In this document: piece after piece, positions 18,780-62,165 of the stretch
Layout: each line of letters begins with the position of its first letter
Numbering within the stretch: the first letter of the stretch is position 1
IMG/VR virus record: IMGVR_UViG_3300033121_002154
Coordinates: 28,908 to 92,907 of that record
Strand: one strand, 5' to 3'
From: a virus
Taxonomy: Duplodnaviria > Caudoviricetes
Length of the DNA: 64,000 bases
The notes under the pieces: generated by a model
The model's database searches: none
Seen by the model: the letters and a program-made list of their open reading frames with translations, nothing else
What the model was told of the DNA's origin: nothing
Made by a program: the position numbers and the translations under genes

Positions 18780-19409
18780 ATGATAACTATAAAAAAAATA
18801 TTAAATGAAATTCTTTTAAATGAAGGAATGGAAAAAGATGCATTAGTAGATAATGCAAGTAAGGCTTTATTCAAAGTTATGAATAAATATGCTACTAAAG
18901 AAAATAGATATCAAGCCATATTATTGGTAATAATGCAAGCTATAGATTATAGATTAAATTCTGTAGATGATAGCTTTAAATATCTTCAATATATTGCACA
19001 TAACATTCTTCGTGGGGAAAATTTTCAATTGAATAATAATGCTATGGATATATTATTAGATAAAGAAAAAGTAAATTTGGATAAAAATGAAGATTTTAAT
19101 GAACATGATGAAATTTCATTAGATGGAATTGTAATAAATAATAGAACAAAAACTGTTAATTTTGGTGACAACCCTTCTATACAAATGCCAAATATTCAAT
19201 TTAAAATTTTATATTTCTTAATGTCTCATCCGGATGTATTTTATTCAAGACAATCAATATTAAAAAATGTTTGGGGTGATAGAGGATATGATGTCAATGA
19301 TAGAAATGTTGATGTTAAAATTTCACAATTAAAAGGATTTATGCCTAATGAATTCAAATCAAAAATAATTGGTAAAAAGAATATTGGATATAAGTTTGAT
19401 TCTAAATAG
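18780..19409 (+). CDS. OmpR/PhoB-type winged-helix DNA-binding protein lacking a receiver domain
   Basis: FKILYFLMSHP..FYSRQSILKNVWG....DRNVDVKISQL...GYKF (Trans_reg_C pattern); start MITIKKILNE. Confidence 0.85.
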   Translation: MITIKKILNEILLNEGMEKDALVDNASKALFKVMNKYATKENRYQAILLVIMQAIDYRLNSVDDSFKYLQYIAHNILRGENFQLNNNAMDILLDKEKVNLDKNEDFNEHDEISLDGIVINNRTKTVNFGDNPSIQMPNIQFKILYFLMSHPDVFYSRQSILKNVWGDRGYDVNDRNVDVKISQLKGFMPNEFKSKIIGKKNIGYKFDSK

Positions 19410-19454
19410 TTTTTAATTGATAAATAACTAAAATAATATTTATTAAAAAAATAA

Positions 19455-19667
19455 ATGAATAAATGTAATGGTGTTTTTGTAAATCAAAGTTTTCCAGGTG
19501 AATCTGTAGATTCACTATTAAAAAAATTTAAGAAAAAAATTAAATTATCAAAAATTCTTCAATTAAAAACTGAATCAGATGTTTTTATAAAACCATCTGT
19601 AAAAAAGAGATTAAAAAAAATTGAACAAATTAGAAAAAATCAAAGTAATTTAAAATTAAATTTTTAA
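19455..19667 (+). CDS. rpsU: ribosomal protein bS21 homolog
   Basis: GESVDSLLKKFKKK......L.......F.KPS.KKR; position next to scaffold and capsid genes. Confidence 0.8.
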   Translation: MNKCNGVFVNQSFPGESVDSLLKKFKKKIKLSKILQLKTESDVFIKPSVKKRLKKIEQIRKNQSNLKLNF

Positions 19668-19706
19668 AATTTTTCATTTCAATTATAATTTAGAGGAGCG
19701 AGTTGC

Positions 19707-20807
19707 ATGAATAAGAGCAATTCAAATTTGGCTAAAGCAATTAATGAAGCAGATACAATCAAAGCAGGTGCACTTAGAAATGCTAATGATTTGCTTATTG
19801 AACAATTTAGACCAAAGATTAAAAATTTTATAAATAGTGCTTTAAATGAACAAGCTCTTGGGCTTGATGAAACTGTACCTTCTGATTTTGATCCGAGTGC
19901 AGGTGAAGACGGTGTTGAAAATCCACAAAACACTATAAATGTTGGTGGTGGTGGTATTCCATTAACTGAACAAGAAGAAGAAGATTTAGAAAATCCAGAA
20001 GACATTGTTGAACAAGACAATGTTGATTTTGATGATGAAGAAATTGTCGAACAAGAAGATATAAACCTTGACGATGAGAATATTTCTGAACAAGAAGATA
20101 TTGATCTTGATGATGAAGACATATCTGAACAAGATATTGATCTTGATGATGAAGATATTTCAGAGCAAGAAGATATTGATCTTGATGATGAAGATATATC
20201 TGAACAAGTAAATGATTTCAATGATCTTGACGATGATGCTATTATTGAAATTGATGATGAAGAATTAGATGATGATTCTATAAGTGAAGAAGATGATAAA
20301 GATGTTACTGATGATGAAGATGATATCGATGAAGATGTTGATGTAAATTCAGCATATAGCGATGAAATCTTGAATAGCACAAATGAATCAAGAAATTTCA
20401 GAAAATTAAAAATTGAATATAGAAATTTAAAAAGAGCAAATGCAAATCTTAAAAGAGAAAATGCAAAATATAATAAAGGCATTTTAATTTTAAGAAAAAG
20501 ATTGCAAGATGTAAATCTTTTTAATGAAAAATTATCTTATTCAATGAAAGTAATTAATAACAAACCAAATCTTTCTCAAAAACAAAAAAGATCAATTGTT
20601 GAACAATTTGATAATTGTAAAAACATAAGAGAAGTAAAGATTACATTTAATGCAATTAATAAATTTTCAAAGCCCTCTGTACAAAAAACAGTTCCACAAA
20701 GAGGATTAAATGAATCAACAAGAAGAATTTTCAGAAATATAAATGAAAACAGAACTAATAAAAATTCTGGAAATGATTCAAGAATGATGCAATTAGCAGG
20801 TTTATAA
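19707..20807 (+). CDS. prohead core scaffold protein (gp22-like)
   Basis: Acidic repeat centre, coiled-coil, VNLFNEKL.Y and MMQLAGL end; immediately upstream of the capsid gene. Confidence 0.75.
   Translation: MNKSNSNLAKAINEADTIKAGALRNANDLLIEQFRPKIKNFINSALNEQALGLDETVPSDFDPSAGEDGVENPQNTINVGGGGIPLTEQEEEDLENPEDIVEQDNVDFDDEEIVEQEDINLDDENISEQEDIDLDDEDISEQDIDLDDEDISEQEDIDLDDEDISEQVNDFNDLDDDAIIEIDDEELDDDSISEEDDKDVTDDEDDIDEDVDVNSAYSDEILNSTNESRNFRKLKIEYRNLKRANANLKRENAKYNKGILILRKRLQDVNLFNEKLSYSMKVINNKPNLSQKQKRSIVEQFDNCKNIREVKITFNAINKFSKPSVQKTVPQRGLNESTRRIFRNINENRTNKNSGNDSRMMQLAGL
20005..20210 (+). repeat. coding tandem repeat, about 39 bp (SEQEDIDLDDEDI)
   Basis: 5-6 imperfect copies within the scaffold gene. 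Confidence 0.85.
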
Positions 20808-20869
20808 ATTTTATATAAAAATAAAAAAATAAAAAGTATTCTTTTTAAATAACTTGGGAGAAATAAGAA

Positions 20870-22606
20870 ATGAATTATAATGAATTAGTAAAACTTACTC
20901 CGCAATTTAATGAAAGAAGTTTAGAACAAAGAGATAGACGAGCTAAACTTTTGGTTGAAAAGTGGAATAGAACTGGTCTTTTAAAGAAAATGTCATCTGT
21001 TGAAAACAGAAACAATATGGCTATGATTTTAGAAAATCAGGCTTTGGCGTTAAGACAATTAAATGAAAGCTCATCTGTAGCTGATATTGCATCTTTTAAC
21101 AAAGTTGCATTTCCGTTAGTAAGAAGAGTTTTCGGTTCTCTTTTAGCAAATGAAATTGTATCTGTACAACCAATGAATATGCCTTCTGGTTTATTATTCT
21201 ATTTGGATTTTGTATATGATAGAACAAAACCTGGATTCTCTTTCGAAAGTGGAAAATCCTTGTATGGTAACAGAAATGCCGTAGTATCTTCAAAATTGCA
21301 GGGGATTGGAGGTATGAACGCTACAGGAGGTTATTATAACCTTAATAGTTCATACTCAAAGCGAATGTTCAGAATATCTTCACAATTGGCATCTGCTTCT
21401 GCTTCATATGCAAGTATTACAGCAACATCACCAACTGTTACAGGAACTTTATCAGGATTTAATTTTACTTTAGCTGCTTCTGATGGAAGTATTGATATAT
21501 CTCAATTAAGAGTTATCAGACCTGTAAGATCTGGTGAAATCAGTTATGAAGGTGGATCTTTTAGAAGTTTATCAGCTATAAAATCCATAACGGCAGATTC
21601 ACTTGCTCCAACAATTGATCAAGGTTTAACACAGTTAGTTGATGCAAGTACAATTAGAATTTTTTCAAATATATATTTAAAAGGAAATAACTTAGAACTT
21701 GGTAATGCTACTGGTTCTATGTCAGCTGTTTTGGTTGGACCTGCAGCTACAAAAATTGATGATTTAACACCATCAACATTAGTTGGTGATTTTGAATCTG
21801 TATCAGAAATTCCACAAGTAAATATTCAAATTAAATCTGTTCCAGTTGTTGCAGTAACAAGAAAATTGAAAACTGTATGGACACCAGAATTATCACAAGA
21901 TATGAATGCTACTTTAACTTTGGATCCTGATGTTGAATTAACAAAAGTTCTTTCAGAGTCAATTGCACTTGAAATTGATAATGAAATTTTATCTGATTTA
22001 TTAGCTGGTGCGGAAGTAAAAGCTGTATGGTCAAGAAAAATCGGTAGATATTTGAAATTAAATGCTGACGGAACTGTTACTTTACAATCATTTGCAGATG
22101 CTTCAAACGGTACCTATCAGGCAAATTTTGGAACACAAAATGAATGGTATCAAACATTTATTGAAACAATCAATGCTTGTTCAAATGAAATCTATAAGAG
22201 AAATAAAAGATCTGGTGCAAACTGGATTATAGTTTCTCCTGAAATCGCTTCAATCATTGAATCACTTTCACAATTTCAAACTGATATTGTATCAGATTCA
22301 GCAAAATCTATATACTCCGTTGGAGTTACAAAAGTAGGTATGTTGAATAGCAGATATACAGTTTACAAAAATCCTCATATGCCGGTTAATAAAGTTCTTA
22401 TCGGTTACAGAGGAGATTCATTCTTGGAAACAGGTTATGTATATAGTCCTTATGTTCCTTTATTAATTACACCGACTATTTATGATCCTGAGAACTTCAC
22501 TCCAAGAAAAGCCGTTATGACAAGATATGCTACCCAAATGGTTAGACCAGAATATTATGGTGTTGTTACCGTATTTGATCTTGATATAATTGGTAACGGT
22601 TTATAA
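20870..22606 (+). CDS. gp23: major capsid protein (T4 gp23-like)
   Basis: ILENQ, PLVRR, VQPM..PSGL.F, RKLK..WT.E..QD, EID.EI, Y.PYVPL, F.P....TRY. Confidence 0.97.
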   Translation: MNYNELVKLTPQFNERSLEQRDRRAKLLVEKWNRTGLLKKMSSVENRNNMAMILENQALALRQLNESSSVADIASFNKVAFPLVRRVFGSLLANEIVSVQPMNMPSGLLFYLDFVYDRTKPGFSFESGKSLYGNRNAVVSSKLQGIGGMNATGGYYNLNSSYSKRMFRISSQLASASASYASITATSPTVTGTLSGFNFTLAASDGSIDISQLRVIRPVRSGEISYEGGSFRSLSAIKSITADSLAPTIDQGLTQLVDASTIRIFSNIYLKGNNLELGNATGSMSAVLVGPAATKIDDLTPSTLVGDFESVSEIPQVNIQIKSVPVVAVTRKLKTVWTPELSQDMNATLTLDPDVELTKVLSESIALEIDNEILSDLLAGAEVKAVWSRKIGRYLKLNADGTVTLQSFADASNGTYQANFGTQNEWYQTFIETINACSNEIYKRNKRSGANWIIVSPEIASIIESLSQFQTDIVSDSAKSIYSVGVTKVGMLNSRYTVYKNPHMPVNKVLIGYRGDSFLETGYVYSPYVPLLITPTIYDPENFTPRKAVMTRYATQMVRPEYYGVVTVFDLDIIGNGL

Positions 22607-22632
22607 AATAAAAGTAATATAAATATATAATT

Positions 22633-22667
22633 AATGGAACCAATAGAAATATTGGTTCCATTTTTTT
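22633..22667 (+). terminator. Rho-independent terminator after the capsid gene
   Basis: AATGGAACCAATA-GAAA-TATTGGTTCCATT hairpin followed by a T run, at the strand convergence. Confidence 0.9.
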
Positions 22668-22923
22668 ATTGTTAATATTCAAGTTTAGTTATTTCTGTTA
22701 CTTTTATATTTTTCTCTTTCTTCTATAACTTTTCTTGCATCATAATACCAAGTATGTTCACTTAAAAAATAATCATTATATGTTATATTTTTTTCTTCAT
22801 CATATATATATTGCAACTTTTGTATTTTTTCAACTACATCATATAATAAATTACGCAATTGTATTGGAGTTAATTTATTTAAATTCATAAGATTTATTAA
22901 TTTCTGTTAAATTTATTTAATTA

Positions 22924-23316: not shown

Positions 23317-24805
23317 ATATATGATAAACAGATGAATTACCGTTTATTTTCACTGTCGAAATATATTTAAATTCACAAATATCCTGTTGCATGAAACCGT
23401 GTGTTTGATATATTTGTATAATTTTTGTTTCTTTTGAAATGCTATTTCGCGGTGTCAAGATCCAAATATAAAGTTTATCATATAGAACCTGAACAGTTAA
23501 TATTTCTGAACCTTTAGGTACAACTATATTTTGCGGTTCTCCTATTAGTTCTAATGGATATTCATTAATAGTGTTAAACATAATAATTTTAAATTTTTAT
23601 TTTTCAGAAATTGTACCATCAACTTTTTTAATTCTTTCTTCATCAATAACAACTGAAAATGGTGATTTTAAAAAATAATAAATACCTTTTACTTTTTTTA
23701 ATCTTCTACCTAAATAAATTATTCTTTCTACTAATGAATTTTCATTTTCAGATTTAATAATATCTATTAAAAGAAATTTTCCTTTATGTTTTATTATATC
23801 ACCAACATTAAATCTTGATATTGAATTTGCATATTTATTATTTAATTTTATTATTGCATCATGCAATTGCCAATATTTAGAAACATAATCTATTGTTTTT
23901 TTATTTTTCATTATTTTGTTTATTTACAAACTCTTCCACTAACATTTTAGCTGATTCTAATCCAGCTATTTTACCATTATGATAACTTAATTCTTATACA
24001 GATGAAAATCCATAATGTTGTTGATTTAAGAAATTTATATTAATTTGTAATTGTGTTAAAAGTTCTTCTGCTTCATTTTTCATAATTTTTATATCACCGA
24101 ATTTAAATATTTTACAATTCATTTTATTTTAAAATCAACTTAATATCTTTTAATAAATCTTCATCTACTATTAATATTCTAACTGTAGGGTTATCTAACA
24201 ATTCCCTAAAATCTGCTGGAGGTTTTGAACCGTGAAGAAAAGTTTCCAAATAATTACAAAACCATTTTCTTCTATAGTTATCATCATGAGTTGCACCATA
24301 ATTATTATCCAAATAGACTAATTTTAATTCATTTAAAAGTCTTTTATTGTTTGCCAAATCATGAAATTTTATATCAATAGTTCTTTCAGACAATTCAAGT
24401 TCAGTATTTGTAATACAATACTTATTATCTATGTAATAAAATTTTAGCATTGATTTTTTTTAAATTTTTTAAAAGAATTCATTTTTTTTTATTGTAAATA
24501 TTTTTTTATTCTTGCAATAATTTCTAATATATTCTTTTGCTTTTTCTTTATCATTTGTTAAATCTTCATCTGTCCACCATACTTCAATTTTGCCATTTAA
24601 CTTATCTATTATTTCACATACAAGTTCTTTTTGTTCTTTGGTTTCCTGTTCTGCTGTGCAACCTTCATTTATTTCATTGTATTTATCTAATGCAACTTGT
24701 GATTCAGGGCTATTAACAAAACACCAAGACTTAATTGTACCAAATTTTAGAAGTAAAAAATCTTCATTTTTCATAATATTTTTTTTATTAAATGTAATTA
24801 ATAAA

Positions 24806-24822
24806 CATTACTTTGATATTAC
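24806..24822 (-). promoter_or_regulatory. direct-repeat promoter box
   Basis: CATTAC-TTTGA-TATTAC (+), upstream of ATG 24774. Confidence 0.7.
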
Positions 24823-26123: not shown

Positions 26124-26953
26124 ATTTTTATGGTTTGAGTTTAAATTCATAATCTGGAAAATATTCAGAATTAGAAAAAGGTGCCAAAGATTCCTCTCCA
26201 TTTATTAAAAAAAATTCTTGAGTAATACCGAATACATTATTGTCTATAACTTTAATTTCACTATTAATAAATTTGAAAGAAATATTTAGCTCTTCCATTA
26301 GTTTTTTAACTTTTTCCAACTTTTTGTAAGTTGGATGATCAGAAGTTAACATTCTCGGTCTTAATTTCATTTAAATTATTTTAATTTTTAATAATAAAGA
26401 AATAAAATAAATTATATATGCTGGAATTGCAATTGTTGTAATTGCTATTTGTGCACAACATATAAAACGTGTAGTTTCTAAAAATTTATATTTATAAGTG
26501 AACATACCAATTATATTTAAAAATATGAAAAGTATAATTGGAATAATTTGCCAAGGTATTTCCATAATTAAATTCCATTTTTATAAATTTTATATAAAAA
26601 ATGCCAATATGATAATTTGAATATTCTTTTCCACTTTAAAGAAATAAAATAATCAAATTCTTTATTGAACTTTATTCTATCTTCTGTTGTCAAATTATTA
26701 AAATCTATTTTCATAACTTTCCCAATGGTTTATATTTCTTTGATATTCTTCAGGACTTTCAAGTTTTTCAATTTCTTTATCAATAAGAAATAATTTTTTA
26801 TAAAACATTTTTTGTTCCCAATGATTATTTACCATTGTATTTGCTAACAAATTATCTTTACATAATTTCAATTCTTTCAATTTTTTATTTAAATTTTTCA
26901 TTTTTATTAAATAAAATTATTTAAAGATTTATTTATTAAATATAATTATTGAT

Positions 26954-26970
26954 TATTACTTTAGTATTAC
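26954..26970 (-). promoter_or_regulatory. direct-repeat promoter box
   Basis: TATTAC-TTTAG-TATTAC. Confidence 0.7.
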
Positions 26971-27267: not shown

Positions 27268-27654
27268 TTATCTAGTTCCATTTTTCCAAATTCCAGCTTT
27301 CCATATTCCACTTAACCAAAATCCATTTTCCCATATACCATTCTCCCAAAGTCCATTTTCCCAAACTCCAGCTTTCCAAATTCCATTTTTCCAAACCCCA
27401 TGCTCCCAAATTCCGCCATACCATACTCCGTTTATCCAAGTTCCAGATTTCCAAAGCCCACCCAGTAAAACTCCAGATTCCCAAATTCCATCATACCAAA
27501 TAAGATTTCCAAGTGAACTAAGCCCCAATATTGCATTTTCAATTTTTGCCTCTAAAACCCATGTGAATTTTTCTTTTAAGATTTCTAAAGTTAAATTATC
27601 TTTTAATTTAATTATTCCATATTTTCTAAAATTATCTTCAAAAAAATATTTCAT
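27268..27654 (-). CDS. GxWxx pentapeptide-repeat protein
   Basis: About 14 G.W.. repeats; paralog of 63348-63731. Confidence 0.85.
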   Translation of the reverse strand: MKYFFEDNFRKYGIIKLKDNLTLEILKEKFTWVLEAKIENAILGLSSLGNLIWYDGIWESGVLLGGLWKSGTWINGVWYGGIWEHGVWKNGIWKAGVWENGLWENGIWENGFWLSGIWKAGIWKNGTR

Positions 27655-28196
27655 TTTATTTTTAAATTTATTGATATGCTACATCATCTTCATAAAATTC
27701 TATTTCCGCCAAAGTTAAATATCTTGCTTGTTTTTGAGTTATTCTATATTTATAATATCCAATCATAGCACCACTTTTAGAATCAGAATCTTTTATAATA
27801 TGTAACCATCCTTTTTCTTCTAAATTACTTACAGATTCATCTAAAATCATATCTGCATAAGTAATATGATTCTGATATTTACAATAATGCATAACACCAT
27901 CAGGTGATAACCATCCTATTTTTAATGTACTATCTTTTGAATCTTTTAATAAATTTTTATAAGTACTTGTTAAAGAAAAATCTAAATCCTGGAAAAATTC
28001 AGCTTTAGCCTTTTTTAATATCTTCATCCCTTTAATGGGTACATAATATGAAAATGAATCAGAATGATACAATTTTGATTGTTCCATAAGAGATTTTTTA
28101 GGATCTGATGGTCTTTTCCATTCTATTTCTTCTTCAAATTGAATTAACCAATAAATATTCTTTTTCATATTTGTTTTATTAAATATAATTACCAAA

Positions 28197-28213
28197 TATT
28201 ACCCTAATATTAC
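28197..28213 (-). promoter_or_regulatory. direct-repeat promoter box
   Basis: TATTAC-CCTAA-TATTAC upstream of ATG 28168. Confidence 0.65.
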
Positions 28214-34490: not shown

Positions 34491-35798
34491 ATTTTTTTAT
34501 TAAATTATTTTTATAATTCAGAATCAGAATCATATATACACTTAAATTTTAAAATTCTTTCTGTTTCTTTATTTTCAACTATTAATGTCATTTCTTTTGT
34601 TGCATCTGAATTATAGTCTACTATATCTACCATATTATTATTTTTCAAATAATTTTCCCATGCAATATCTGACATACCATCTTCAAATATATAGTTTAAA
34701 AATTTATTATAAGAAACATCTGGCAATTTATGTTCTGAACCATCATCAAATTTTATTTTTATTATTGTACTCATTTTTTAATTTTTAATTTTTATTTATT
34801 TGATCCGTTATGTATATTTGTTTACCCCAACAACTTAAGTATATAGGAACATTATTTTTATTAACATATACAGTAATGAACGTTTCTTTATTATTTAAAG
34901 ATTTAATAAATTTATTTAACTTGCGTTTTGACCATTTCTTTTTTAATCCTTTTAAATACTTGCTATATGAAAATTCAATATTCTTTTTCATTTCTTATTT
35001 TACTTTTATTTATAATCTTGTATTTTTTAACATTGCAACAAAATATGTATAATAATCTGCAAATTTACTAATTTCTTCAATAAATAATTTAGCTGACTTT
35101 TCTGATGTAAATTTTAATCCTTGATAATATGAGAATTTATAAGAATTTATCATTAATTTTTTAAAATTATCATTAAAATAAATTACATAAAACATTTCAT
35201 TTTCTTTTTCATATTGCTGATTACAAAATTCAGCTAATTTATTTAATTCTGAATTTATAAATGATTCTTCCCATAAATTAATATCTTTTGGCAATGCTAA
35301 AATAAATTTATTTGTATTTTTTGTCTCTGTTTCTATTTTAAACCGTTTTGGGCGAAGACGTATATAAGATTCATGATAATTTAAAATTAATTCATCATCT
35401 ATTTTCCACTGCCAATTTTGAAAATGTTTAGTTCCTGGTGTTCCAGCAGGAATAAAATCAAAACCTTTATAGAAATCTTTTTTTGTTTGAACTGATATTA
35501 TATCTGCTTGAGCTGTTAATGTATCTTCCATAATATTTTAAATTTTCTTTTATAAAATTTAAGTTAAATAATTTTTTTTATAATATTCTAAAAATTTTTT
35601 TATTAATTCAGCACTTGTTAAACCTTCATTACAATCACCATTTGCTCTATTATTCCACCAAATTCCATTATTTAATTTATAGCTATTCAATTCAAGCCAT
35701 TCAGTTAATTTTTCTAATATTTGTTTTTCTTCTTCCATTATACTTTTTAAAATTAATCTTTAAAGGTTTTCATTTTATAAATAAATATAAAAAATTAA

Positions 35799-35815
35799 TA
35801 TTACTTAAATATTAT
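35799..35815 (-). promoter_or_regulatory. direct-repeat promoter box (variant)
   Basis: TATTAC-TTAAA-TATTAT. Confidence 0.5.
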
Positions 35816-36667: not shown

Positions 36668-37405
36668 ATTTTAAATATTTATTTTTAAAAACCTAATTGT
36701 CTCATTCTATTGTCAAAATCTGGTATTGAAGATTTAAAATTAATTATATTATTTAATATTTGTATAATTTTCAATTCAAAATTATTAACAAATTTTTCAA
36801 GATAATTCTGATTTACAATGCCATATATTTTACATTTAAAGCCATATCGTAAGTCAATAATTTCTTTTTTGAAATAATTACAATATCCAAATAAACAAGA
36901 AAATAATTCTTCAATTTCGGGTATGTCTTTTTCATTAAGTTTTATTATTGTAGAAACTTCTATAAAAATTTCAAATTCAAAAGACGCTTTAACTTCTTTA
37001 CATTCACTAATATCCAATAAAAGACTTTTAATATTTCTAGAATTTAAAAAGCCAATTTTATTTCTGTAATTTTTTTTGAAAAATTTTATTTTTCATTTTT
37101 TAATTTTGTATTTTTTTAAAAAATTTCTTTTTTTATCTTTATAAATTATTAACATTATTCTTAACCAAGGATATATTTTTAAAGTCCAAACTGTCAAAAT
37201 AATCCCCAATGCGATTCCAAGAATTATACAAGCATACTGTTCTTTCATTTTTATTTAAAAATTTAATATTAAAAAATTTCTATGAATGATTTTTTCATTT
37301 CTTTTTCATCTAAATTTACCCAAATTCAATTGGCAAAATTTATGGCATTTGTTCTATTATTCATATTATAAAATTATTTTAATTTATATAATATAATAAA
37401 TTTAA

Positions 37406-37422
37406 TATTACTTCAATATTAC
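37406..37422 (-). promoter_or_regulatory. direct-repeat promoter box
   Basis: TATTAC-TTCAA-TATTAC. Confidence 0.7.
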
Positions 37423-39874: not shown

Positions 39875-40310
39875 TTAAATTAAAATTTTTTCAATATTGT
39901 AACATTTGAAACAATGTAAAATTTGATTTATATATACGCCCATAAATCCATCAGGTTCAGGTAAATTTCTATTACATTTTTGACAAAATGTTTTTGCTGG
40001 TAATTCCGGTAATTCTGGCAGTTGATATTCTAATTCAGAAATTATTTTTAACAAAGTTTTTTCAATCTTCATTTTTTTTAAATAACCAAGTAATGATAAT
40101 GTAAATTCTTTACGAAATTCTTCCGTTGCAACATTGGGAAATAAAAAAACATTTTGTGCATCTTCAATTTTATATTTTTCCATAAAATCTTCCATCATCA
40201 TCTCTTCTAAATTTCTATGTAAAATTCTTGAATCTAAATTTTTTATTCCAAGAAAATATCCAAATTTCATAATTTTTTATTTTTTTAATTATAATAATAT
40301 AAATAATATA

Positions 40311-40327
40311 TATTACTTAAATATTAC
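40311..40327 (-). promoter_or_regulatory. direct-repeat promoter box
   Basis: TATTAC-TTAAA-TATTAC upstream of ATG 40270. Confidence 0.75.
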
Positions 40328-40759: not shown

Positions 40760-41395
40760 AAACGTTTGGCCTCGCCTTCTTTAATTGTTATATCATGTTT
40801 TTCATATGTGCATATATCAATTTCATATTTTTTACGATATTCATCAAATATTTTATCAGCTTTTGCAGGTGTTTTTGCATTTACTATAACAATATTCATT
40901 TTGATGCCAACATTCCATATATAATAAAATATTCTTTTTTTCATTTATTTTTTAATTGGAAATTTTTGTGAATATGCTGTATTCAAATATACTGCTTTAT
41001 TTTTTTCAATACTATCAAGCACATAAATTTCATTATAATAAACATTATTTATATCATTTTTTTCAAAATATTCATCAAATATTTTTTTTGATTTTTCAAT
41101 ATTCTTTGCTTTAATAACAACAATATTTACACCGGCACTATTAAACCATTTGTAATAAAATGTTTTCATTTTTATTTTAATTTTAAAGTTTATAAAAAAT
41201 TGAATTTTCTTCTTCAAATTCTTTTAAAACTTTTGCTCTTTCTTCTTCTGTATTAAAAAAATCTCTTGTTCTCCCACCATCTTCCCATTCCCATTCAATT
41301 CCAAATTTTCCATTATCAGTTTCAAATATATCAGAAATATATTTTTCCATTTTAGTTCTTATTTAATTTTTTAATAATTTAATATAATAATAATA

Positions 41396-41412
41396 TGTTA
41401 CTTTAATATTAC
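41396..41412 (-). promoter_or_regulatory. direct-repeat promoter box
   Basis: TGTTAC-TTTAA-TATTAC. Confidence 0.75.
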
Positions 41413-41415
41413 TTT

Positions 41416-42150
41416 TTAAATAATACCTTCAAATATTAATGCAGGATTTAACCCTGCATTTAACTTCCAATTATCCCATTCTTCCTGAGTAATTATTTTA
41501 AAATCACGTTTTTTACAATCTGTTATAACTTCATCATAAGAACATTCAATTATTTGTCTACATATTTCGCCTGATTTATTGTAGGCAATGTACCCATATA
41601 CATAATTTCCAGTCGAATATTCAGATCCCCGTCTTCTTTCTCCGGCGGGTTTTGATATTGATGCTAATCGGGATTTTATTAATGCAATCCCTTTATAATG
41701 CCTGAATATGTCAAAATATTCCCTTTTCGGAGTTTCATACTCTCTGAATTTGCAGAACTCAAACTTTACAGTTTTTGTTCCGTCCACATTTTCCACTGCT
41801 TTTCGCTCTGTTGTTGAACAAATCACAGTATACCCCTCACCCTGTAGTAGATTTACAAGATAATGAGTATAACACATTTCACCCATTACCATAACCACAG
41901 TGTTCTGATTGTTATGATAAAGCGGAAAGTCTTTTAAAGACTTTTCCGAATCCCTTCTATTGAAAGGTTTTATCAAATCTTCCAAAGTGGATATATGGGA
42001 ATACTTTACAGTATCCCAATCAGGGTTTATATTTGGAAATGGAAGATCGATTATTTCTTCTGCCATTTCCAAAGCAGCTGTTTTTTGCTTTTCACCCCAT
42101 TTATCGGAGGGATGGTTGGAAATATTAAGAAAATATTTCATTTTATTCAT
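41416..42150 (-). CDS. Csx20/Csx15-like CRISPR-associated Rossmann (ring-nuclease-like) domain plus C-terminal extension
   Basis: N.SNHPS.KW...Q..AA...IIDLPFPNI.P...MGEM.....V..L...G.....STTER...E..DG.K...F.F..FREY. Confidence 0.65.
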   Translation of the reverse strand: MNKMKYFLNISNHPSDKWGEKQKTAALEMAEEIIDLPFPNINPDWDTVKYSHISTLEDLIKPFNRRDSEKSLKDFPLYHNNQNTVVMVMGEMCYTHYLVNLLQGEGYTVICSTTERKAVENVDGTKTVKFEFCKFREYETPKREYFDIFRHYKGIALIKSRLASISKPAGERRRGSEYSTGNYVYGYIAYNKSGEICRQIIECSYDEVITDCKKRDFKIITQEEWDNWKLNAGLNPALIFEGII

Positions 42151-42487
42151 TTTTATTTAATTTAATTATTAATTAAGCCCAATTTTCAAAAGCAATAGCT
42201 TCTTTATCTAATAATACTTTCATTGCAATTTTCCCGTAAAAAAATTTATCATCAGTATTTGCATTTATAAAAACATATTGCCCATTTTCTTTATCAATAT
42301 ATTGATACCGACTTATCCATTCACCATCATTTACTATACAATATCTATAACCATTTTTAAGTTGAGTAACTTTTGTTAATATTTTACCAACACAAACATC
42401 TTCATCATTTAACTGCAACCACGATTTACTATAAACTTTTGAGTTTCCCATTTTTATTTTTTTAATTATTATAATATAATAATAATA

Positions 42488-42504
42488 TGTTACTTTAATA
42501 TTAC
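42488..42504 (-). promoter_or_regulatory. direct-repeat promoter box with TATAAT 14 nt downstream
   Basis: TGTTAC-TTTAA-TATTAC; attata at 42468-42473; ATG 42451. Confidence 0.8.
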
Positions 42505-42548
42505 TTTTATATATCAATAATATTTATATAAATAAAGAGGAGTAAATA

Positions 42549-44132
42549 ATGAAGCAAATTTTAATATTAATTATGTTTTTTTGCAGTTTTTCTATTTTAA
42601 ATGCTAATCCTACAACTATAAAAATTAGTGCAATTTTTGAGGGCAGATATAATTCTCAAAATAATTCTATGATTGGTGATTCTGCAAAAGTTTATATAAG
42701 ACAAAACAACTATCCCTATTTAATAATAGATTCATCTGTAAATTTTATTGGAAATAATTTTGAGGGATATTTTAGTTTTAATAATATTATAACTGGCAAT
42801 TATTTTATTACATTAAAGCATAGAAATTCAATTCAAGTATGGAGTAATCCGGGAATTAAAATAACCAGAGGAATTTTAAATTATTATGATTTTACAAAAC
42901 CCGGAGCTGTTTATGCAAATAATGTAAAATTTCTGGATAATCAAGCAACAAAATTTGCACTATATTCTGGTGATATAAACCAAGATGGAATTATAGACGT
43001 TTGGGATATATCTTATGTCGAAAATCATCTCGGCAATGAAGGTTATGATATAGCAGATTTAAGTGGAGATGATTTTGTTGATGCATCAGATTTAAGTATT
43101 ATAGAAAATAATATTGACACAATTGTTATGATAAAAAATCCCCCAACAACATTAACATATCCAAAAATTATATATCCGCCTATTAAATCAAGTACAACTA
43201 ATGATATTTTATTATTGCCATATACTTCTGTCATTAAAGTTAATGATACATTTTTTATGTATTATTTAATTCCTGGGTTAGGTACAAAATTAGACACATC
43301 ATTAGATGGAATAAATTGGAAATTTAAAGCAAATGTTTCTGTAAATAGAAATAATGTTCCATCAAAAGGAGACTCATTATATTCAGTAATTTATAAAAAT
43401 GGCTTATGGTATAGTGGGTGGACATGTCATGCATATGTTGGTTCAGTTTACACAGAATTTATTAATATAGCTGTTAGTTCAAATGGAGTAAATTTTACTC
43501 AATATTCAGGAAATCCATTACCATTTAGAGTAGGTGAAGATTTATCATTTTTTAATAATATAGATTCATTTTATTGTTATATAAGACCTGCAATTCCAAT
43601 GTATGTTTATCCGCGTCAAATTGGTTTAATGAAAAGTCGTGATTTTATAAATTGGACAAAAATTGATACCATAATAAAATTTTCTAATTCTGATTATACT
43701 AATTCATTATCGCCGTTATATTTAAAGCAACCATATAATATGAATGTTATAAAAATTGGAAATGATTGGTGGGGCTTTATGCAAACATTGCGAATAGAAG
43801 ATGATGGTACAGAAGCCTGGAGATTTCCATATACTGAATTAGAAGAAACTGTTGAAACATTATTAATGTATAGCAATGATGGTAAAAATTGGAAATATAC
43901 AAATAATAAAAAACCGTTTATTCCGTTACATGATTCTATAAAACAAGTTTATGCATTACCAACAATAGTTAATGATTCTTTGTACATTTATTCCTTTGAA
44001 AGTTCTTTAAGGCATGCAGGTTATTCACTTGCATATGGCGGACAAGCAGCAGTTGACTTTGCAAAAGGTAAAAAATGGAAAATTTTTCTTTATAAATTTT
44101 CAATAAATGATTTAAATTTTTGGAAACCATAA
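42549..44132 (+). CDS. secreted protein: signal peptide, dockerin-like domain, beta-propeller glycoside hydrolase-like domain
   Basis: MKQILILIMFFCSFSILNA; GDINQDGIID / DLSGDDFVDASD; repeated S.DG.NW / S.DF.NW motifs; RBS AGAGGAG. Confidence 0.75.
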   Translation: MKQILILIMFFCSFSILNANPTTIKISAIFEGRYNSQNNSMIGDSAKVYIRQNNYPYLIIDSSVNFIGNNFEGYFSFNNIITGNYFITLKHRNSIQVWSNPGIKITRGILNYYDFTKPGAVYANNVKFLDNQATKFALYSGDINQDGIIDVWDISYVENHLGNEGYDIADLSGDDFVDASDLSIIENNIDTIVMIKNPPTTLTYPKIIYPPIKSSTTNDILLLPYTSVIKVNDTFFMYYLIPGLGTKLDTSLDGINWKFKANVSVNRNNVPSKGDSLYSVIYKNGLWYSGWTCHAYVGSVYTEFINIAVSSNGVNFTQYSGNPLPFRVGEDLSFFNNIDSFYCYIRPAIPMYVYPRQIGLMKSRDFINWTKIDTIIKFSNSDYTNSLSPLYLKQPYNMNVIKIGNDWWGFMQTLRIEDDGTEAWRFPYTELEETVETLLMYSNDGKNWKYTNNKKPFIPLHDSIKQVYALPTIVNDSLYIYSFESSLRHAGYSLAYGGQAAVDFAKGKKWKIFLYKFSINDLNFWKP

Positions 44133-44143: not shown

Positions 44144-44171
44144 AATCTGAGGAATTTTTATTCCTCAGATT
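44144..44171. terminator. probable bidirectional terminator
   Basis: AATCTGAGGAA / TTCCTCAGATT inverted repeat between convergent genes. Confidence 0.7.
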
Positions 44172-46128: not shown

Positions 46129-46161
46129 ATTTATTTTTAATATATAAATGTAATAAACATT

Positions 46162-46178
46162 TATTACTTCAATATTAC
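46162..46178 (-). promoter_or_regulatory. direct-repeat promoter box
   Basis: TATTAC-TTCAA-TATTAC, 34 nt upstream of the tRNA half. Confidence 0.75.
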
Positions 46179-50063: not shown

Positions 50064-50124
50064 AATTATTTAATAAAAAGTAATATTTCAATGTTACTTA
50101 AATATTACTTTTTATTAAATAATT
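50064..50124. repeat. perfect 25-bp inverted repeat overlapping a promoter box (50092-50108)
   Basis: AATTATTTAATAAAAAGTAATATTT-11 nt-AAATATTACTTTTTATTAAATAATT. Confidence 0.85.
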
Positions 50125-50149
50125 AAATTTATTTTTTTATTATTTAAAG

Positions 50150-51503: not shown

Positions 51504-52267
51504 ATATTTATTAATATATAATATATATATTATCTAATTATTAAACATTTAAAATCTATCCATAATAACAATTTTTATTATTCATTAATAAATCTTTTAT
51601 AATTATAGCTTTTGTATTATATAATTTTTCTTCAGTCAAATTAAATTTCTTAAGTCTTAAATTGAGGTAATCATTTAATTTTTTATTTGCAAGTTCTTTT
51701 ATATCATCAAATCTACCAAATTTTTTAGCAATATTTAAATTAGAATTCCAAGCCCTTGCGGCAGCTAACCATTGTTTAATTTCTAATATTTGATTTTCAA
51801 TAATATTTGGGAAATATTTTTTATAACATAATTCACATAATGATTCACCATTATGACAAATAAATGAATTATTTTTTTTACAAAGAAAACATTTTTTTTT
51901 CATATTTTATTTGTTTAATTTGATTTTCACTTGCATAAAGCTGATTTACAAATTGTAAATATTCAGGTTCTTCTTCAAATGTCCAGCAAGGAATAATTAA
52001 TGTATCACTATTTAAAATATTTTTAATATTTTCTATTCCATATTTTTTATCAATTAAAACAAATGTTTCAATATTTTTTTGATATAATTCATCAAAAATA
52101 TTTACATCAAATTTATAATCTTTATTTTCAGAATTATAAAATTTCTTATAATAACGAAAATATGCTTCTTTAATATTTTTAATCCCCATAAGATCATCAC
52201 TATTCAAATTTTTAATTTGAATTTTCGAATCACAATAAATTGCAAATTTCATTTTGGTTTTTTAATT

Positions 52268-52741
52268 TTATTTATACCAAAATGGTTTTTCTCTATTTCT
52301 ATTCCACTTGGCAAATAATTTTTGTTTGATATAATAATTTCTATATGATTCAACTACATCATTATTTATTTTACAATTTTCAGGCATACATAAAGAAAAT
52401 TCTGTAAGAGTATAATGTTTTATATTTTTTGGTAAATTTGAAAGTATTTGCAATAATTTACTTTCAGTTAAATGAATTTTATTGTAACGATATTGATATT
52501 CTTTACATAAATAATAAAATAAACTATATAACCATTTATAATTTTCGGAACTTTCTCTAACCCATTTATTACAAGGATGATTTATATGTGTACTTTTATA
52601 AAAGATGTCGTTTTTTCCATCAAGAATCTGATGGCATGTACTTAAAAGTTGTGCAGATTCTAAAATCATTTTTACTACATGCTTATCACAATGAAACTGC
52701 GCAGCAATTTCAGGATTAATATCTAATACAAAAATATTCAA
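52268..52741 (-). CDS. pyrimidine-dimer DNA glycosylase / endonuclease V-like protein
   Basis: MNIFVLD..P..AA..HCDKHVVKMILESAQLLST...H.NHPC..W. Confidence 0.85.
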   Translation of the reverse strand: MNIFVLDINPEIAAQFHCDKHVVKMILESAQLLSTCHQILDGKNDIFYKSTHINHPCNKWVRESSENYKWLYSLFYYLCKEYQYRYNKIHLTESKLLQILSNLPKNIKHYTLTEFSLCMPENCKINNDVVESYRNYYIKQKLFAKWNRNREKPFWYK

Positions 52742-53468
52742 AAATTTTTATATCTGTTTTGATTTTAAAATATTTACAATAATATCTAATTTTTTTAAAA
52801 TAGAATTTAATTTAAAAATATAACTTTCAATAAAATCTTCAGAATAATTTGCAGATTTTTTATTTTGAAAATCAAATAATTTATTTGATAAATTATTTGA
52901 TATTTCTAAAAAAATTTCATAAATTTTTGAAAGTTTTTCTGATTTTATTTCTATTTTATATTCATTAACAAAATATTCAAATAAATCCAATTGTTCATCT
53001 GAAAAATTAATTTCACATTCTGAATCATCATATACTTCTAAAAAATTTTGTATATTTAATATTTCTATTGAAGTAAATTTCATAATCTTTTTTAATTTAA
53101 TTTAAAAAATTTATAAATTTTTTATAATACTATTTATAAAAAATTTATAATTTGAATCTTTAATTAACTTTTTAACTCTTTCATCTTTTAAATCATTTTT
53201 AAAATTTTCAAGTCTATCAGAAAATGAACCTTTTAAATCTGAATGATATTTTATTTTATTTCTTATATTTGTTTTTTCAAGTTCAAAACCAAATTCATAA
53301 ATATCATATCTACCTGGTACGGCATATCTAAAAAAAAATATTTCATTATCAATTATATTTATTGCAAAATATTCATTATGCTCATTGTCAGATAGAATAT
53401 TTACATTATCTGAAAATATATAATTTTTATTCATATTAAAAATTTATTTATATAAAGTAAATAATAAA

Positions 53469-53485
53469 TGTTACTTTAATATTAC
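53469..53485 (-). promoter_or_regulatory. direct-repeat promoter box
   Basis: TGTTAC-TTTAA-TATTAC upstream of ATG 53434. Confidence 0.75.
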
Positions 53486-55197: not shown

Positions 55198-56134
55198 TAA
55201 ATAAATTTATTTTAAATTTTTTTCCTTTCATACTTTTTAAAAATTTCCCTGATGAAACAGTTTTACCAAATTTTTCGGTAAAATCTGCATCGAATAATTC
55301 GAAAATCATTGCCTGCCCTTCACCACGTGTATACACTTCAGGAAGATAAGGATTATCAGAAAAAGATATTACTGGGTAAACTACTGGATTAATTTCTAAA
55401 ACTATAAATAATTTTTTTGAGTTTTTCATTTTTATTTTTTTATTAATTCTAAAAATTCACTTAATATAATATATTTAATATTATAATCACCACCATTGCC
55501 ATAATAATCTCTATCTTCTTCTTCTTCCTCATGTATTATCTTTTCAATTTCTTCATATTTTATACATGAAAAATAATCATATTTTAATTGTCTTAAAATT
55601 AAATCTATTACAGTAAATTTTGGACTTTCACCCCATTCCCAAATTTCCTCATAAGTTAATCCTGGTAAATTATCTTGCCAACCATTACCCCACCAATATC
55701 CTTTTTTCCATCTCATATAAATTACAGGTTCTTTAATATCAACAGGTATACCTGAAGGTTCTGTCAATATACCTTCAAAATTTTCATATAAATCTTTAAA
55801 TTCACATTTAGAATTAATTTCATCAATATCTTCTTTAGTTAATTCATTCATTTATAGACTTATTTAATTGTTTTTCAATTAATTTAATTGACGTTTTCTT
55901 ATCTTTCAAAATTTTTATTTTTTCTTTAAGGTTTTCACTTTCATAATCTTCCAATAATCCTCTTGTAATCAAGAACCCTTTCTTAATAAGAAATTCTTCC
56001 AACAATAATAATATAGTAGTTTTCCCTGTACCGACTAATCCTGATATTTCAATATTTATTTTGTTTTTCATTAAAATTATCTAAATTAAATTTTTCCATT
56101 TTTATATTTTAATTATTATAATATAAAAATCAAA

Positions 56135-56151
56135 TATTACTTTGATATTAC
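56135..56151 (-). promoter_or_regulatory. direct-repeat promoter box with TATAAT 14 nt downstream
   Basis: TATTAC-TTTGA-TATTAC; attata at 56115-56120. Confidence 0.8.
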
Positions 56152-57917: not shown

Positions 57918-58921
57918 ATTAAATCCTCTATAAATTCTCTTTTTTTATTATCTAAAAACTTTTTACAAATAGCATTTACACTTAAAATAAATTCATATTC
58001 ATTAATTAAAAATTCAGTTTTTGATTCAAATTCAAGATATAATTTTCTTTGTAATTTAAAAAAATCATTTAATTCATCTTTTGATAATGTTTTTTCAATA
58101 ATTGATCTAGCTTTTAAATAATTACCATCTGAAATTTTGAATAAATCAGTTTTTGACCAAATTGAATTAATATATACTAATTTTTCATCATTATAAAAAC
58201 CAGGCTTTATATTAATTAATTCATATTTTTTTTCTGATACATCTTTAATAGAAACAAGTTCATTATCAACAGTTGGAAGTGATGAAAAATCCCAATCATC
58301 ATTACTCATATTTTTATTTTTATCTTATATAAAATATTATTTATAAATTTTATAAATTTTTTGATTAAATCTCAATTCTTGCAATGTTTGAATATTAATA
58401 TTTCTTAAAGCTTTTTTAGGATTTTTTCTTGCAGCTTTACCTTCTCTAACAAGAACATATCCTAATTCTTTATATGGTTGAATTTCGGTTCTTTGACCAT
58501 TAATTACTCTTAATACATTTTTCTTTGTTTTAAAAACCGCTGTAAAAAATTTTCCTTTTGTACTTTCCATTATTTTAAGAGCCGCCGCTTTACCAATATT
58601 AATAACATCTTTCTCACCAGAAATTGAAAATATTTTGTGTTTTTTTTTAGTAACCTTTGAATTATTTTTTGCAATAGTATTTTTAATCATACTATATGTT
58701 CTATAAGTTCCATTATCTGTATATGTACATTTTTCATCAATATTAAATTCATTCATAACATTGCTTATTTCTGCTTGAAACCACTTCTGATCAGGAAATT
58801 TTTGTCTCAATTCATTTTTTATTTCCAATGTTGTTACTGTTCCATTTGGTTTTACCAGTCTGTTGGCCATTGCCAATACTTTTGCTTTATTCTTTTTATT
58901 CATAATATTTTATTTTTTAAT

Positions 58922-60097
58922 TTATTTTTTTAACCAAATAATATATTTTATTCTATTTTGCTTTTCATTATAAGTAATTATTTCACTATTTAATAAACCA
59001 TTTCCGGCTTTTACATAAGTGCTATCATAACCTCTTTTATTTAAATTTGAATAATCTAAATTAAAAGAATTGCCCCTATACCAACCATCATAAACAAAAG
59101 GATTTCCAGTATGAACTTCATATACCAAAAGTATTTTATCATTATCATATCCAGTATAACCTAATGACTTACTAACAACTTCACTAAAATAATTTCCTTC
59201 TCCATAAGCCTTACCACTATATTGATAATTTCCGGTTGGTCTAATTTTTAATCCCTGTTTTAAAATTGATAAAACAGAGGAGCATCTTGTTCCGTGAATA
59301 AGAAATTTTGTTTGAGAATTTTTTTGTTTTTTTAACCAATCTTCAAAAATTTGTTCTTCTTTTGAATTTTTAATTTTAAAAATTGAACCAATTTTATTTG
59401 TAATTTGTTTTTCCAAAAAACTAATTTCTTTAGGAAATTTGCATTCTTCCATTTCAACGCCAATTTCTTCAAGTATATTTTTTCTTTTTGAATTATTATT
59501 ACTTATATTATTTTTAAATCTCATTGAAATTTGTGAAGACATAGCATCCAAATTATCTTGTTCCTGAGTAAGTGTATCTTTTAAATCTATTTCAGGTAAA
59601 ATATGATTTTGCACTTTTTTCATTTTTCTTGGAATCAAAGTGTATAAATCAATGAGATTTTCATTAATTTTATCCTGATCTTTTTTATTATTAAGTGAAT
59701 TTAAAACATTTAAAATTCTTTGTGCTTCATCAATTTGATTCTGAGTTACATTTTCAGATTTAACAGAATATGTTTTGCTTACCAAATTATCTCTGTATAA
59801 CTTCATAAGGTTCATAAATTCACTAACCTTTTTGTCTTTAATTTCATTTGAATCCAATAATACATCTGAATCATTTTTAACCTCAGTTACAAACTGTGTA
59901 ACATCTTTATAGCCCTTTTTTATCTTTTCATTATACTTTTTAGACCAATCAGAATAATTATATGAATGTTGAATTGACGTTAATTCAACCCTACCATAAT
60001 TTACTGTAAAAGTATTGCCACCGTCATATTTCATTTCATAAAACTTATTATTATTATCTTTCGTAATCATAATAAGTTTATTATAATTTTGATTCAT
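58922..60097 (-). CDS. poly(ADP-ribose) polymerase-like protein (WGR + regulatory + catalytic)
   Basis: NNNKFYEM..YGRV..K.KKGY (WGR); LYT.IP (regulatory); HGT...G.G.YF...S..Y...L..SE...Y (H-Y-E). Confidence 0.88.
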   Translation of the reverse strand: MNQNYNKLIMITKDNNNKFYEMKYDGGNTFTVNYGRVELTSIQHSYNYSDWSKKYNEKIKKGYKDVTQFVTEVKNDSDVLLDSNEIKDKKVSEFMNLMKLYRDNLVSKTYSVKSENVTQNQIDEAQRILNVLNSLNNKKDQDKINENLIDLYTLIPRKMKKVQNHILPEIDLKDTLTQEQDNLDAMSSQISMRFKNNISNNNSKRKNILEEIGVEMEECKFPKEISFLEKQITNKIGSIFKIKNSKEEQIFEDWLKKQKNSQTKFLIHGTRCSSVLSILKQGLKIRPTGNYQYSGKAYGEGNYFSEVVSKSLGYTGYDNDKILLVYEVHTGNPFVYDGWYRGNSFNLDYSNLNKRGYDSTYVKAGNGLLNSEIITYNEKQNRIKYIIWLKK

Positions 60098-60134
60098 TTT
60101 TTTATAATTAATTTATTATAATATATAAATATAA

Positions 60135-60151
60135 TATTACTTTAATATTAC
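60135..60151 (-). promoter_or_regulatory. direct-repeat promoter box with TATAAT 14 nt downstream
   Basis: TATTAC-TTTAA-TATTAC; attata at 60115-60120; upstream of PARP. Confidence 0.8.
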
Positions 60152-62148
60152 TTTTAAATTAAATTTATATTTCATAATTTTACCTTCTTTTTTAAATCTT
60201 TTATTACTTCTTTAAGAATTATGATTCTTAATTTGCTATCAGATTTATCGAACCAATATCCATTATAATAACTAATAATGGTTCGGTGCGGTTTATATTT
60301 TTTTAGTTCTGGCAAAATTTTTAACATATCTCCACTATTTGCATAGACTTCATTAACAGAAAATGCGGCACAAAAACCCATTTCCCAAAAACCTAAAGTA
60401 TTAACACTTTCTAACTTGCAAATCATTTTTCTACATAAACTTATTTTCTGTTTATTGGTTAAATTATTCATTTTTATTTTTATTTTAAAAAATATTTATA
60501 TGACATGGCATATACATAACCTATATAATATGGTACATTAGGTATCTGTATTATGGGTTTATTTGATTCTGGTATTATATTCCATTTATCATCATATATA
60601 AAATTAATCTTTGGATATACCAATTGATTATTTTTTATCATATGTGGTGTATTATTGATTAATGTGTACATACCATTAATTCTATCTTTTACAATCCATT
60701 CACCATCTTGATATTCAGGTAGACTTACAGAATCTATAAATAATTCACCATCTATATACACTGGCATACGATTGTACTTTTCTATTGGATCTTCAATTAA
60801 ATCATGCTTATAGGTAAATCTTTTTATTATATATTTTGTAACCTTATCTAACCAGCTTATTATATAATCTAACTTAAATGTTATATATCCAATTATAAAA
60901 CCAATTGCAATTAATTCCATTAAAGTTGGATTTATTAGTGCATCCATATTTTTTTAAACTTAATTATTTCTTTAACTAAAAAATATTTTTCTGTTAAATC
61001 ATTATGTCAAATTTTTATATAAGTTACCTAAATTAAAAGTTCTTCTGGTTTTACTGGGATAGGTATTCTTAATAATTTTTAGCCAAGTATTAAAAATTCT
61101 TTTATCTTCATCATTTAGTTTTTCATTTAGAAATTTTTCCACTAAACGAGTAATTTCAGAATTATTGGATAATTCTACTAATGAATTTAATTTAATCATT
61201 TTATTATTTAATCTAATTTTTTAATTATATTGGTTATTTCTTTTATCATCCTATATATCCATATCACATAAAATCCCATAGGAATACAAAACCTGAGAAG
61301 TTCTTTCTTACTCTTAATATTACCAATGCCTAACATTATAAGAACAGCAATATACTGAACTATGCAAAAACTTATTAGAAGAGCAATTTCATTCATAATA
61401 TTTTTTTATAATTTAATTTTATAAAAATAATTGGAAAATTCTTGAGAGCTACTCAATGCCATAGCATTTTCACAATTAACAAAAATGTTAGCACATGTTA
61501 ATGAACCAAATCTAAACTAACATAGAATTTTCCTAATTAAATAGTGGCCTTACGCAAGGCTTAACTTGCTTCTTTATTAAATAGAAAATAAATAAATTTA
61601 TTTTTACAAACAATTTAATTAAAATTACCGTACGTATTAATTTTAATTATCTCTTTAACTATTTAAGAATGTTTTATTCTGTTAAACTATCAGGCCGGAG
61701 ATTTTTATTTTACAAATTGCTTAATGAAATCCGGTGAGGTACAACCATCTTTACCACCAGATAAAGATTTTATAAGAATATTATTTTTTCTTCTTTTTTG
61801 CAACATACCATCAATTCTATATCTTTTTCCTTGATATGTAAATTCCTTATGAAGTAATTTTGGATCTAAATCATACCAATGTGCTTGCTTTTTAAATGTG
61901 TCTTCATTTATATTAAATGCTTCACCATTTACTTGAGATGCTGTACAAGTATATTTTGATGTGAATTGATTATCAGTATATCTGCCAGGTGTTGTAACAA
62001 AATCAAATTTTACATTATATTTTTCTTCAAGGGCCTTTGTTGCTTCCTGAAGCTCTTTTCTGAAATTACTAAAATTAAAATTTTTATCAAACATTTTATT
62101 TTTTGTTTAATTAGTAAATTAATTATTTAATATAATATAATAATATTA

Positions 62149-62165
62149 TGTTACTTATATATTAC
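62149..62165 (-). promoter_or_regulatory. direct-repeat promoter box
   Basis: TGTTAC-TTATA-TATTAC upstream of ATG 62094. Confidence 0.75.

Follow-up and report, generated by a model that had tools for sequence, protein, structure and literature searches.

A 92.9-kb IMG/VR record of an uncultured T4-like phage contains 15 copies of a direct-repeat box that very probably mark a class of phage-specific promoters, and the same record encodes a candidate to read them, a PhoB-type DNA-binding protein without a receiver domain (positions 18780-19409). Positions refer to the 64,000-nucleotide stretch that was analyzed, which comprises bases 28908 to 92907 of the record and is hereafter called the window; coordinates prefixed G000 take in the part outside the window as well. 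As the best single explanation, held at a probability of roughly 0.3 to 0.4, we propose that the boxes are the upstream element of promoters driving leftward, early-type operons and that their reader is a head-to-tail pair of this protein. Synthesis of the protein would occur late; the leader would direct it to the scaffolding core, and a T4-type prohead protease would cleave it behind Glu15. Once packaged, it would enter the next cell together with the DNA, attach to the boxes, and bring in host RNA polymerase with no need of phosphorylation, as a PhoB-like class II activator. The record is 44% complete by the CheckV estimate, has a GC content of ~23%, and is divided between the two strands. 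A plus-strand, late structural block (G000 2.5 kb to window 22.6 kb) encodes a T4-type portal, large terminase, Peptidase_S77 prohead protease, and gp23-type major capsid protein. A minus-strand block (window 22.7 to 64 kb) of ~85 mostly small open reading frames (ORFs) includes ten tRNA genes, ThyX, a WGR-PARP protein, nucleotide pyrophosphohydrolases, and nucleases, by analogy the kind of genes that T4-like phages express before replication.

The pattern YRTTAC-N5-TATTAC has 13 exact matches, all on the plus strand (at 24806, 26954, 28197, 37406, 40311, 41396, 42488, 46162, 50092, 53469, 56135, 60135, and 62149), against 0.06 expected and a maximum of 1 in dinucleotide-shuffled sequence. When a weight matrix built from the sites was run over the whole record, it returned exactly 15 sites, namely the 13 exact matches, a variant at 35799, and one copy outside the window at G000:235-251, so that 14 boxes lie inside the window. 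These 15 sites score 31 to 50, with the next best position at 14.6, and share a single orientation throughout. Every site is intergenic and precedes minus-strand genes, and in 11 of 14 cases the end of the box lies 28 to 63 nt before the next minus-strand ATG; the plus-strand block yielded no site in the weight-matrix scan. The original prediction had claimed this pattern, its coordinates, its single orientation, its usual position shortly upstream of minus-strand starts, and its absence from the plus-strand late block, and all of these claims were borne out. The boxes of the window are as follows, each read in the direction of the minus-strand genes.

24791..24822, minus strand, box promoter 1; box at 24806-24822, TACATT 9 nt downstream
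26939..26970, minus strand, box promoter 2; TATATT 9 nt downstream
28182..28213, minus strand, box promoter 3
35784..35815, minus strand, box promoter 4; variant, first half-site ATAATA
37390..37422, minus strand, box promoter 5; sole site with a 10-nt spacer
40296..40327, minus strand, box promoter 6
41381..41412, minus strand, box promoter 7; 37-nt core the same as at 42488 and G000:235
42473..42504, minus strand, box promoter 8; in a divergent intergenic region beside a plus-strand dockerin gene, with a second TATAAT at 14 nt
46147..46178, minus strand, box promoter 9
50077..50108, minus strand, box promoter 10; TACTTT, upstream of a 604-aa gene and a tRNA cluster
53454..53485, minus strand, box promoter 11
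56120..56151, minus strand, box promoter 12
60120..60151, minus strand, box promoter 13; 37 nt upstream of the WGR-PARP gene
62134..62165, minus strand, box promoter 14

In gene orientation the box reads GTAATA-N5-GTAAYA, and the fuller consensus is aaaa-GTAATA-ttaaa-GTAAYA, followed after 9 nt by TAYATT. The same sequence can be written as two 11-bp direct repeats, (A/T)AAGTAAYAT(T/A), and the two 11-mers within a site agree at 8 to 11 of 11 positions across all 15 sites (mean, 9.5). A PHO box likewise consists of two 11-nt direct repeats, each with a conserved core and an A/T-rich remainder, on which the effector domain is bound head to tail (PMC4415409). CpxR sites have the form GTAAA-N4-8-GTAAA (PMC5063474). 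A k-mer census of the record found no other long recurrent noncoding motif. At three sites (41381-41416, 42473-42508, and G000:220-255), a 37-nt core is identical even in its nonconserved spacer, which suggests a recent duplication or gene conversion of promoter cassettes.

In 14 of 15 sites the box is followed by TAYATT after 9 nt; the spacer of the remaining site is 10 nt. If TAYATT is taken as the -10/-7 element (the Bacteroidota -7 consensus is that of PMC7641319), the box spans about -38 to -22, and the fixed distance in 14 of 15 sites argues that it replaces the -35 region, as E. coli pho boxes do (PMC4971064). The box thus appears to occupy the -35/-33 place beside a -10-like hexamer and a presumed transcription start. 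No TTGACA-like or Bacteroidota TTTG-like (-33) element was found at a usable spacing from TAYATT; the position 16 to 21 nt upstream falls inside the box and reads ATATTA or similar. Sigma-70-like sites are not enriched in the block (151 versus 186 expected). The TATAAT previously reported exactly 14 nt downstream is present in three copies of the window (42488, 56135, and 60135) and in the copy outside it, but it does not extend to the boxes in general, where the conserved element is TAYATT. In 4 of 15 sites the hexamer is TAC(A/T)TT (24791-24800, 46147-46156, 50077-50086, and 53454-53463), and the ATTAC that this creates is an inverted GTAAT half-site; at 50080-50108 the inverted half-site gives a longer palindrome. 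Such a half-site may serve as a third binding site or may reflect mere tolerance at that position.

An alternative role for the boxes would be as junctions of recombination or of mobile cassettes, as replication iterons, or as an RNA element. The three identical 37-nt cores would fit such a role, as would the six sites at which the upstream gene ends with the TAA contained in GTAATA. Against this stand an orientation that strictly follows gene direction, the fixed spacing to the -10-like hexamer, the short distance to start codons, and a scatter over 41 kb in place of the clustering of iterons, and we regard a nonpromoter function as very improbable. The idea of an RNA element or terminator was dropped for want of a structure signal: predicted structure in the box region was not above shuffled controls (z between -0.9 and +0.5), and the folds differed.

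The candidate reader and its parts are listed here.

18780..19409, plus strand, gene for a 209-aa receiver-less OmpR/PhoB-type protein; leader at residues 1-15, novel helical N-domain at 16-~108, winged-helix effector domain at ~110-209
18780..18824, plus strand, N-terminal leader MITIKKILNE-ILLNE with [LI]xE sites after E10 and E15
19107..19406, plus strand, winged-helix DNA-binding/transactivation domain; recognition helix R175-N-V-D-V-K-I-S-Q-L-K185

The C-terminal domain can be assigned with confidence to the true OmpR/PhoB effector fold. Pfam Trans_reg_C matches residues 134 to 206 at 3e-13 (50.1 bits against a gathering cutoff of 26.2; 6.8e-15 in a six-frame search), and a profile of the five-member family retrieves the DNA-binding domains of ArlR and PhoB from the PDB at 1e-18. 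The AlphaFold (AF2) model of residues 110 to 209 has a predicted local distance difference test score (pLDDT) of ~90 and the order of elements E-E-E, H-H-H, E-E, in agreement with the family fold of an N-terminal four-stranded sheet, three helices, and a C-terminal beta-hairpin wing. Its best Foldseek matches are 1gxq and 1gxp, the PhoB effector domain alone and bound to pho-box DNA, at TM scores of 0.85 to 0.88, a root mean square deviation of 1.5 to 1.7 Å, and 31 to 32% identity. W165, G166, V172, and D174 align with PhoB W184, G185, V190, and D192, which we take to be the transactivation loop residues needed for sigma contact. Presumed base-contact positions of PhoB are replaced in the phage protein, in the equivalents of T194N, H198K, R200S, and R201Q. 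Residues 1 to 108 are predicted to be all-helical, with low confidence, and this N-terminal region has no relative in Pfam, in the PDB (by sequence, at an E value of ≤10), or among Atlas look-alikes; since Response_reg also gave no Pfam match, the protein has no receiver domain. An OmpR/PhoB winged helix without a receiver in the late block, carrying the leader of that block, had been proposed at the outset, and both parts of that proposal stood. Freed of its receiver, the effector domain is a constitutive DNA binder (PMC4415409).

This protein is the only Trans_reg_C match in the 93-kb record. An OmpR-type operator in a class II position and a single OmpR-family effector tie the protein to the boxes, and on this sequence-based reasoning we put the chance that it reads them at about even. 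The boxes could also be real promoters with another reader, such as a phage sigma-like or MotA-like factor in the missing 56% of the genome or the product of an orphan ORF. The winged-helix protein would then target a host regulon, as a constitutive mimic or competitor of a response regulator, or would be a general DNA-binding internal head protein. T4 MotA, with an unrelated fold, acts at the same promoter position. Most ORFs of the record have no family, with 44% of the genome seen, and large and jumbo phages often carry several transcription factors of their own (PMC7824862). On the other side, the 11-bp tandem direct repeat is the OmpR/PhoB signature and exactly one such domain is encoded, and the Pfam matches of 155 ORFs in this 44% complete genome (85 on the minus strand, 70 on the plus strand) include no sigma, MotA, AsiA, or helix-turn-helix (HTH) family. 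The sole PHROG family labeled "DNA binding protein," a potential rival regulator in the early block, was set aside as a Pyr_excise-type (pyrimidine-dimer glycosylase-type) repair gene. A different reader therefore seems to us rather unlikely.

A host OmpR-family response regulator would be a further candidate, with the phage protein as its competitor or unrelated to it. There is a precedent in cyanophages, where host PhoB reads pho boxes of phage genes. CpxR and WalR-type sites are similar to the box, and Bacteroidota encode many OmpR-family regulators, as seen in a control match in Bacteroides. However, in 401 sampled genomes of the phylum of a Chitinophagaceae metagenome-assembled genome (G001), the extended box AGTAATA-N4-AGTAAYA occurs no more than twice per genome, not above a reversed control, compared with 14 occurrences in the 93-kb phage record, and tying all early operons to the phosphorylation state of a host regulator would be risky. 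A WalR-type reader is weakened further by what the sequence suggests of the host. WalR is restricted to Firmicutes. In the phage, a Shine-Dalgarno-like core precedes only ~10 of 160 genes, and the phage-encoded ribosomal protein S21 is nearest to those of Ignavibacteria, Chitinophagaceae, Tannerella, Prevotella, and Bacteroides; a Firmicute host is therefore unlikely, and the host probably belongs to the Bacteroidota/FCB (Fibrobacterota, Chlorobiota, and Bacteroidota) group. Taken as a whole, we consider reading by a host regulator improbable.

We asked how widely the regulator and the boxes occur. An exhaustive HMMER search of 1.8 billion representative proteins recovered four full-length homologues only (P0003 to P0006), at 25 to 45% identity, on Logan and ENA contigs (P0003 to P0005) and on a 40.9-kb JGI contig (P0006). 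No relatives were found in IMG/VR or GTDB genomes, a set of 50,697 phage records gave only likely bacterial regulators, and scans with homologue P0006 as the query gave bacterial regulators or nothing. Two scans of other viral contigs for the box produced single chance matches, never more than one per contig, and a regulator homologue was absent (tblastn) from 80 loci found through the capsid protein at 35 to 38% identity. In Flavobacterium phage immuto, the nearest cultured relative, there was no exact box (seven one-mismatch matches versus two in the control) and no tblastn match to the regulator, a weak case of co-absence.

The placement of the regulator gene and its leader bear on how the protein might act early. 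Within the late structural block, the gene has a beta-helix spike-like gene on one side and the S21, scaffold, and capsid genes on the other, and the protein begins with the leader MITIKKILNEILLNE, which ends in LNE. Such leaders are basic and amphipathic and end in two hydrophobic residues, any residue, and Glu. The pattern is present in 29 of 71 plus-strand proteins versus 5 of 86 minus-strand proteins, the latter five unconvincing, so that the regulator shares its [LI]xE leader with 28 other late-block proteins. It is kept in all four full-length homologues, and E15 is invariant in the alignment. The T4 gp21-type prohead protease gene lies at G000:15319-15963 (Peptidase_S77, 6e-28 at 15409-15852; PHROG head maturation protease, 7e-49), and [LI]xE-type sites are also found on the scaffold-like protein and on the protease itself. 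In T4, the prohead protease cuts at [LI]xE, and proteins both internal and foreign enter the head by way of a short capsid-targeting sequence (PMC3012670). Given the resemblance of the leaders and the shared protease family, packaging of the regulator in the head is a reasonable inference by analogy with T4. With its gene in the late block and this leader on its product, the regulator could activate early transcription only as a premade, injected protein.

The leader-bearing proteins form a group in their own right. About 29 otherwise unrelated plus-strand proteins (G000:2816-29072 and window 1212-20807) carry the leader MKITKKQLIKLIKE-Q and variants, ending in [LI][LI]xE, and together they look like a very large set of capsid-targeted cargo. 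One member is a CCA-adding/poly(A) polymerase-type enzyme (4525-5985). The plus-strand block further contains genes for a NUDIX hydrolase and an ART-PolyVal ADP-ribosyltransferase.

Late synthesis also admits the reading that the winged-helix protein binds the boxes as a late-made repressor, occluding the -35 region and ending early transcription, with something else to activate the boxes early. The placement of the gene in the late structural block agrees with this, and OmpR-family proteins repress too when they overlap core promoter elements. Yet the boxes come without a recognizable -35/-33 element and would need an activator, which was not found; the leader kept in all homologues points to packaging; and the PhoB residues linked to sigma contact are kept. 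We think a repressor of this kind improbable.

Returning to the injected activator, the original prediction had advanced this interpretation, and it gains partial support from the box geometry, the identity of the domain, and the leader; binding, packaging, injection, activation, and timing are inferred. Several considerations weigh against it. The link between protein and box is drawn from geometry and domain identity; with 44% of the genome in hand and most ORFs orphans, another reader may exist; and the -10-like hexamer, its fixed position aside, carries little information in a genome of 23% GC. The likeness of the leader to T4 capsid-targeting sequences suggests rather than proves packaging or ejection, and since the N-terminal 108 residues have no known fold, dimerization is presumptive. 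The general proposition, that a tailed phage packages a sequence-specific, phosphorylation-independent activator and co-injects it to switch on ~15 dedicated immediate-early promoters, is accordingly one that we put forward as tentative and somewhat doubtful. Even if the reader differs, the boxes map the transcription units of a very divergent T4-like phage.

Two further features of the late block mark the surroundings of the regulator gene.

19707..20807, plus strand, scaffold-like protein, leader ..AINE, immediately preceding the major capsid gene; a head scaffolding family is among the PHROG matches of the plus-strand block
20870..22606, plus strand, major capsid protein, T4 gp23-type (Pfam Gp23, 3e-71), marking the late block that holds the regulator gene

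The capsid protein has only 35 to 44% identity to anything else, and its nearest named relatives are in Flavobacterium phage immuto, a Microcystis phage, and Rhodothermus phage RM378. The S21 gene (19455-19667, plus strand; Pfam, 3.7e-10) sits between the regulator and scaffold genes. Directly upstream of the regulator gene, a 1,243-aa protein (14995-18726, plus strand) has no Pfam or PHROG match; it is probably a tail spike or depolymerase, as its language-model features group with right-handed beta-helix proteins, and the possibility that it is a virion RNA polymerase was dropped because of this spike-like character. The late block also encodes a topoisomerase IB catalytic core of the eukaryotic/poxvirus type (11350-12513, plus strand; Pfam, 2e-20).

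Among minus-strand genes, the protein with WGR and PARP catalytic domains (58922-60097) begins 37 nt downstream of box 60135, which makes it a candidate box-driven early ADP-ribosyltransferase. One plus-strand gene stands alone within the minus-strand block (42549-44132); it encodes a signal peptide and a dockerin domain (1e-5), has a strong Shine-Dalgarno-like AGAGGAG, points away from box 42488 in a divergent arrangement, and precedes a bidirectional terminator with a 12-bp stem at 44144-44171. The Pyr_excise/phrog_624 match at 51878-52741 (minus strand) spans two ORFs with two TAA stops within, so that this repair gene is either split or broken. Repeated CCAA(A/G)TTCCA units at 63365-64000 and 27270-27490 encode peptide repeats of the MELGK/MEFGK type in small minus-strand ORFs.

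The closest known parallel to the proposed arrangement is the E. coli PhoB/pho box system, with which it shares the winged helix, two 11-bp direct repeats in the apparent place of the -35 region beside a -10-like element, and the W/G/V/D loop residues. Unlike PhoB, the phage protein has no receiver or kinase and carries a novel helical N-domain and a putatively cleavable leader. Its recognition-helix residues differ, as does the half-site (AGTAAYA in the phage, CTGTCAT for PhoB), and it is phage encoded, in a late block, for a host that is probably a member of the Bacteroidota with a -33/-7 type sigma. CpxR and WalR operators are similar in their tandem GTAA-containing half-sites about one helical turn apart, but they serve host stress and cell wall regulons of Proteobacteria and Firmicutes, and none were seen in the sampled Bacteroidota genomes. 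If the model is true, it would show that a two-component effector domain can part from its receiver and serve a virus as a constitutive switch. With a 194-residue mature protein and a 32-bp promoter, the system is small and may offer an orthogonal expression switch for Bacteroidota-type hosts, whose promoters are unusual.

Among phage systems, T4 MotA/AsiA is similar to the proposed arrangement in that a phage-specified box, centered near -30, takes the place of the -35 element ahead of an ordinary -10 and occurs in many copies before pre-replicative genes. MotA differs in having a double-wing fold and a single 9-bp box, in needing AsiA, and in being made early, and neither MotA nor AsiA was seen in the 155 ORFs here. 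The capsid-targeted IPI-III and Alt proteins of T4 resemble the regulator in their short leader ending in [LI]xE, their T4-type protease, and the location of their genes in or near the head module, whereas the leader described here is longer and is used by ~30 genes. T4 Alt is an injected protein that biases early transcription. However, Alt modifies RNA polymerase and the internal proteins are antirestriction factors, and none is a sequence-specific DNA-binding activator.

To our knowledge, phages start their program through host-type promoters, an injected RNA polymerase, or an injected polymerase-modifying enzyme, and we know of no other way; in the literature, our searches turned up no phage described as packaging an OmpR-type activator. 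If the model holds, the arrangement would resemble the virion RNA polymerases of N4, phiKZ, and crAss-like phages and herpesvirus VP16 in that a premade factor enters with the genome and turns on immediate-early genes by way of a dedicated promoter motif. The N4, phiKZ, and crAss-like systems differ in delivering a polymerase instead of an activator of the host enzyme, and VP16 differs in being eukaryotic and in binding DNA through host partners. A virion-delivered, sequence-specific activator would then be a further strategy beside virion RNA polymerases and Alt-type enzymes, and a bacterial counterpart of VP16.

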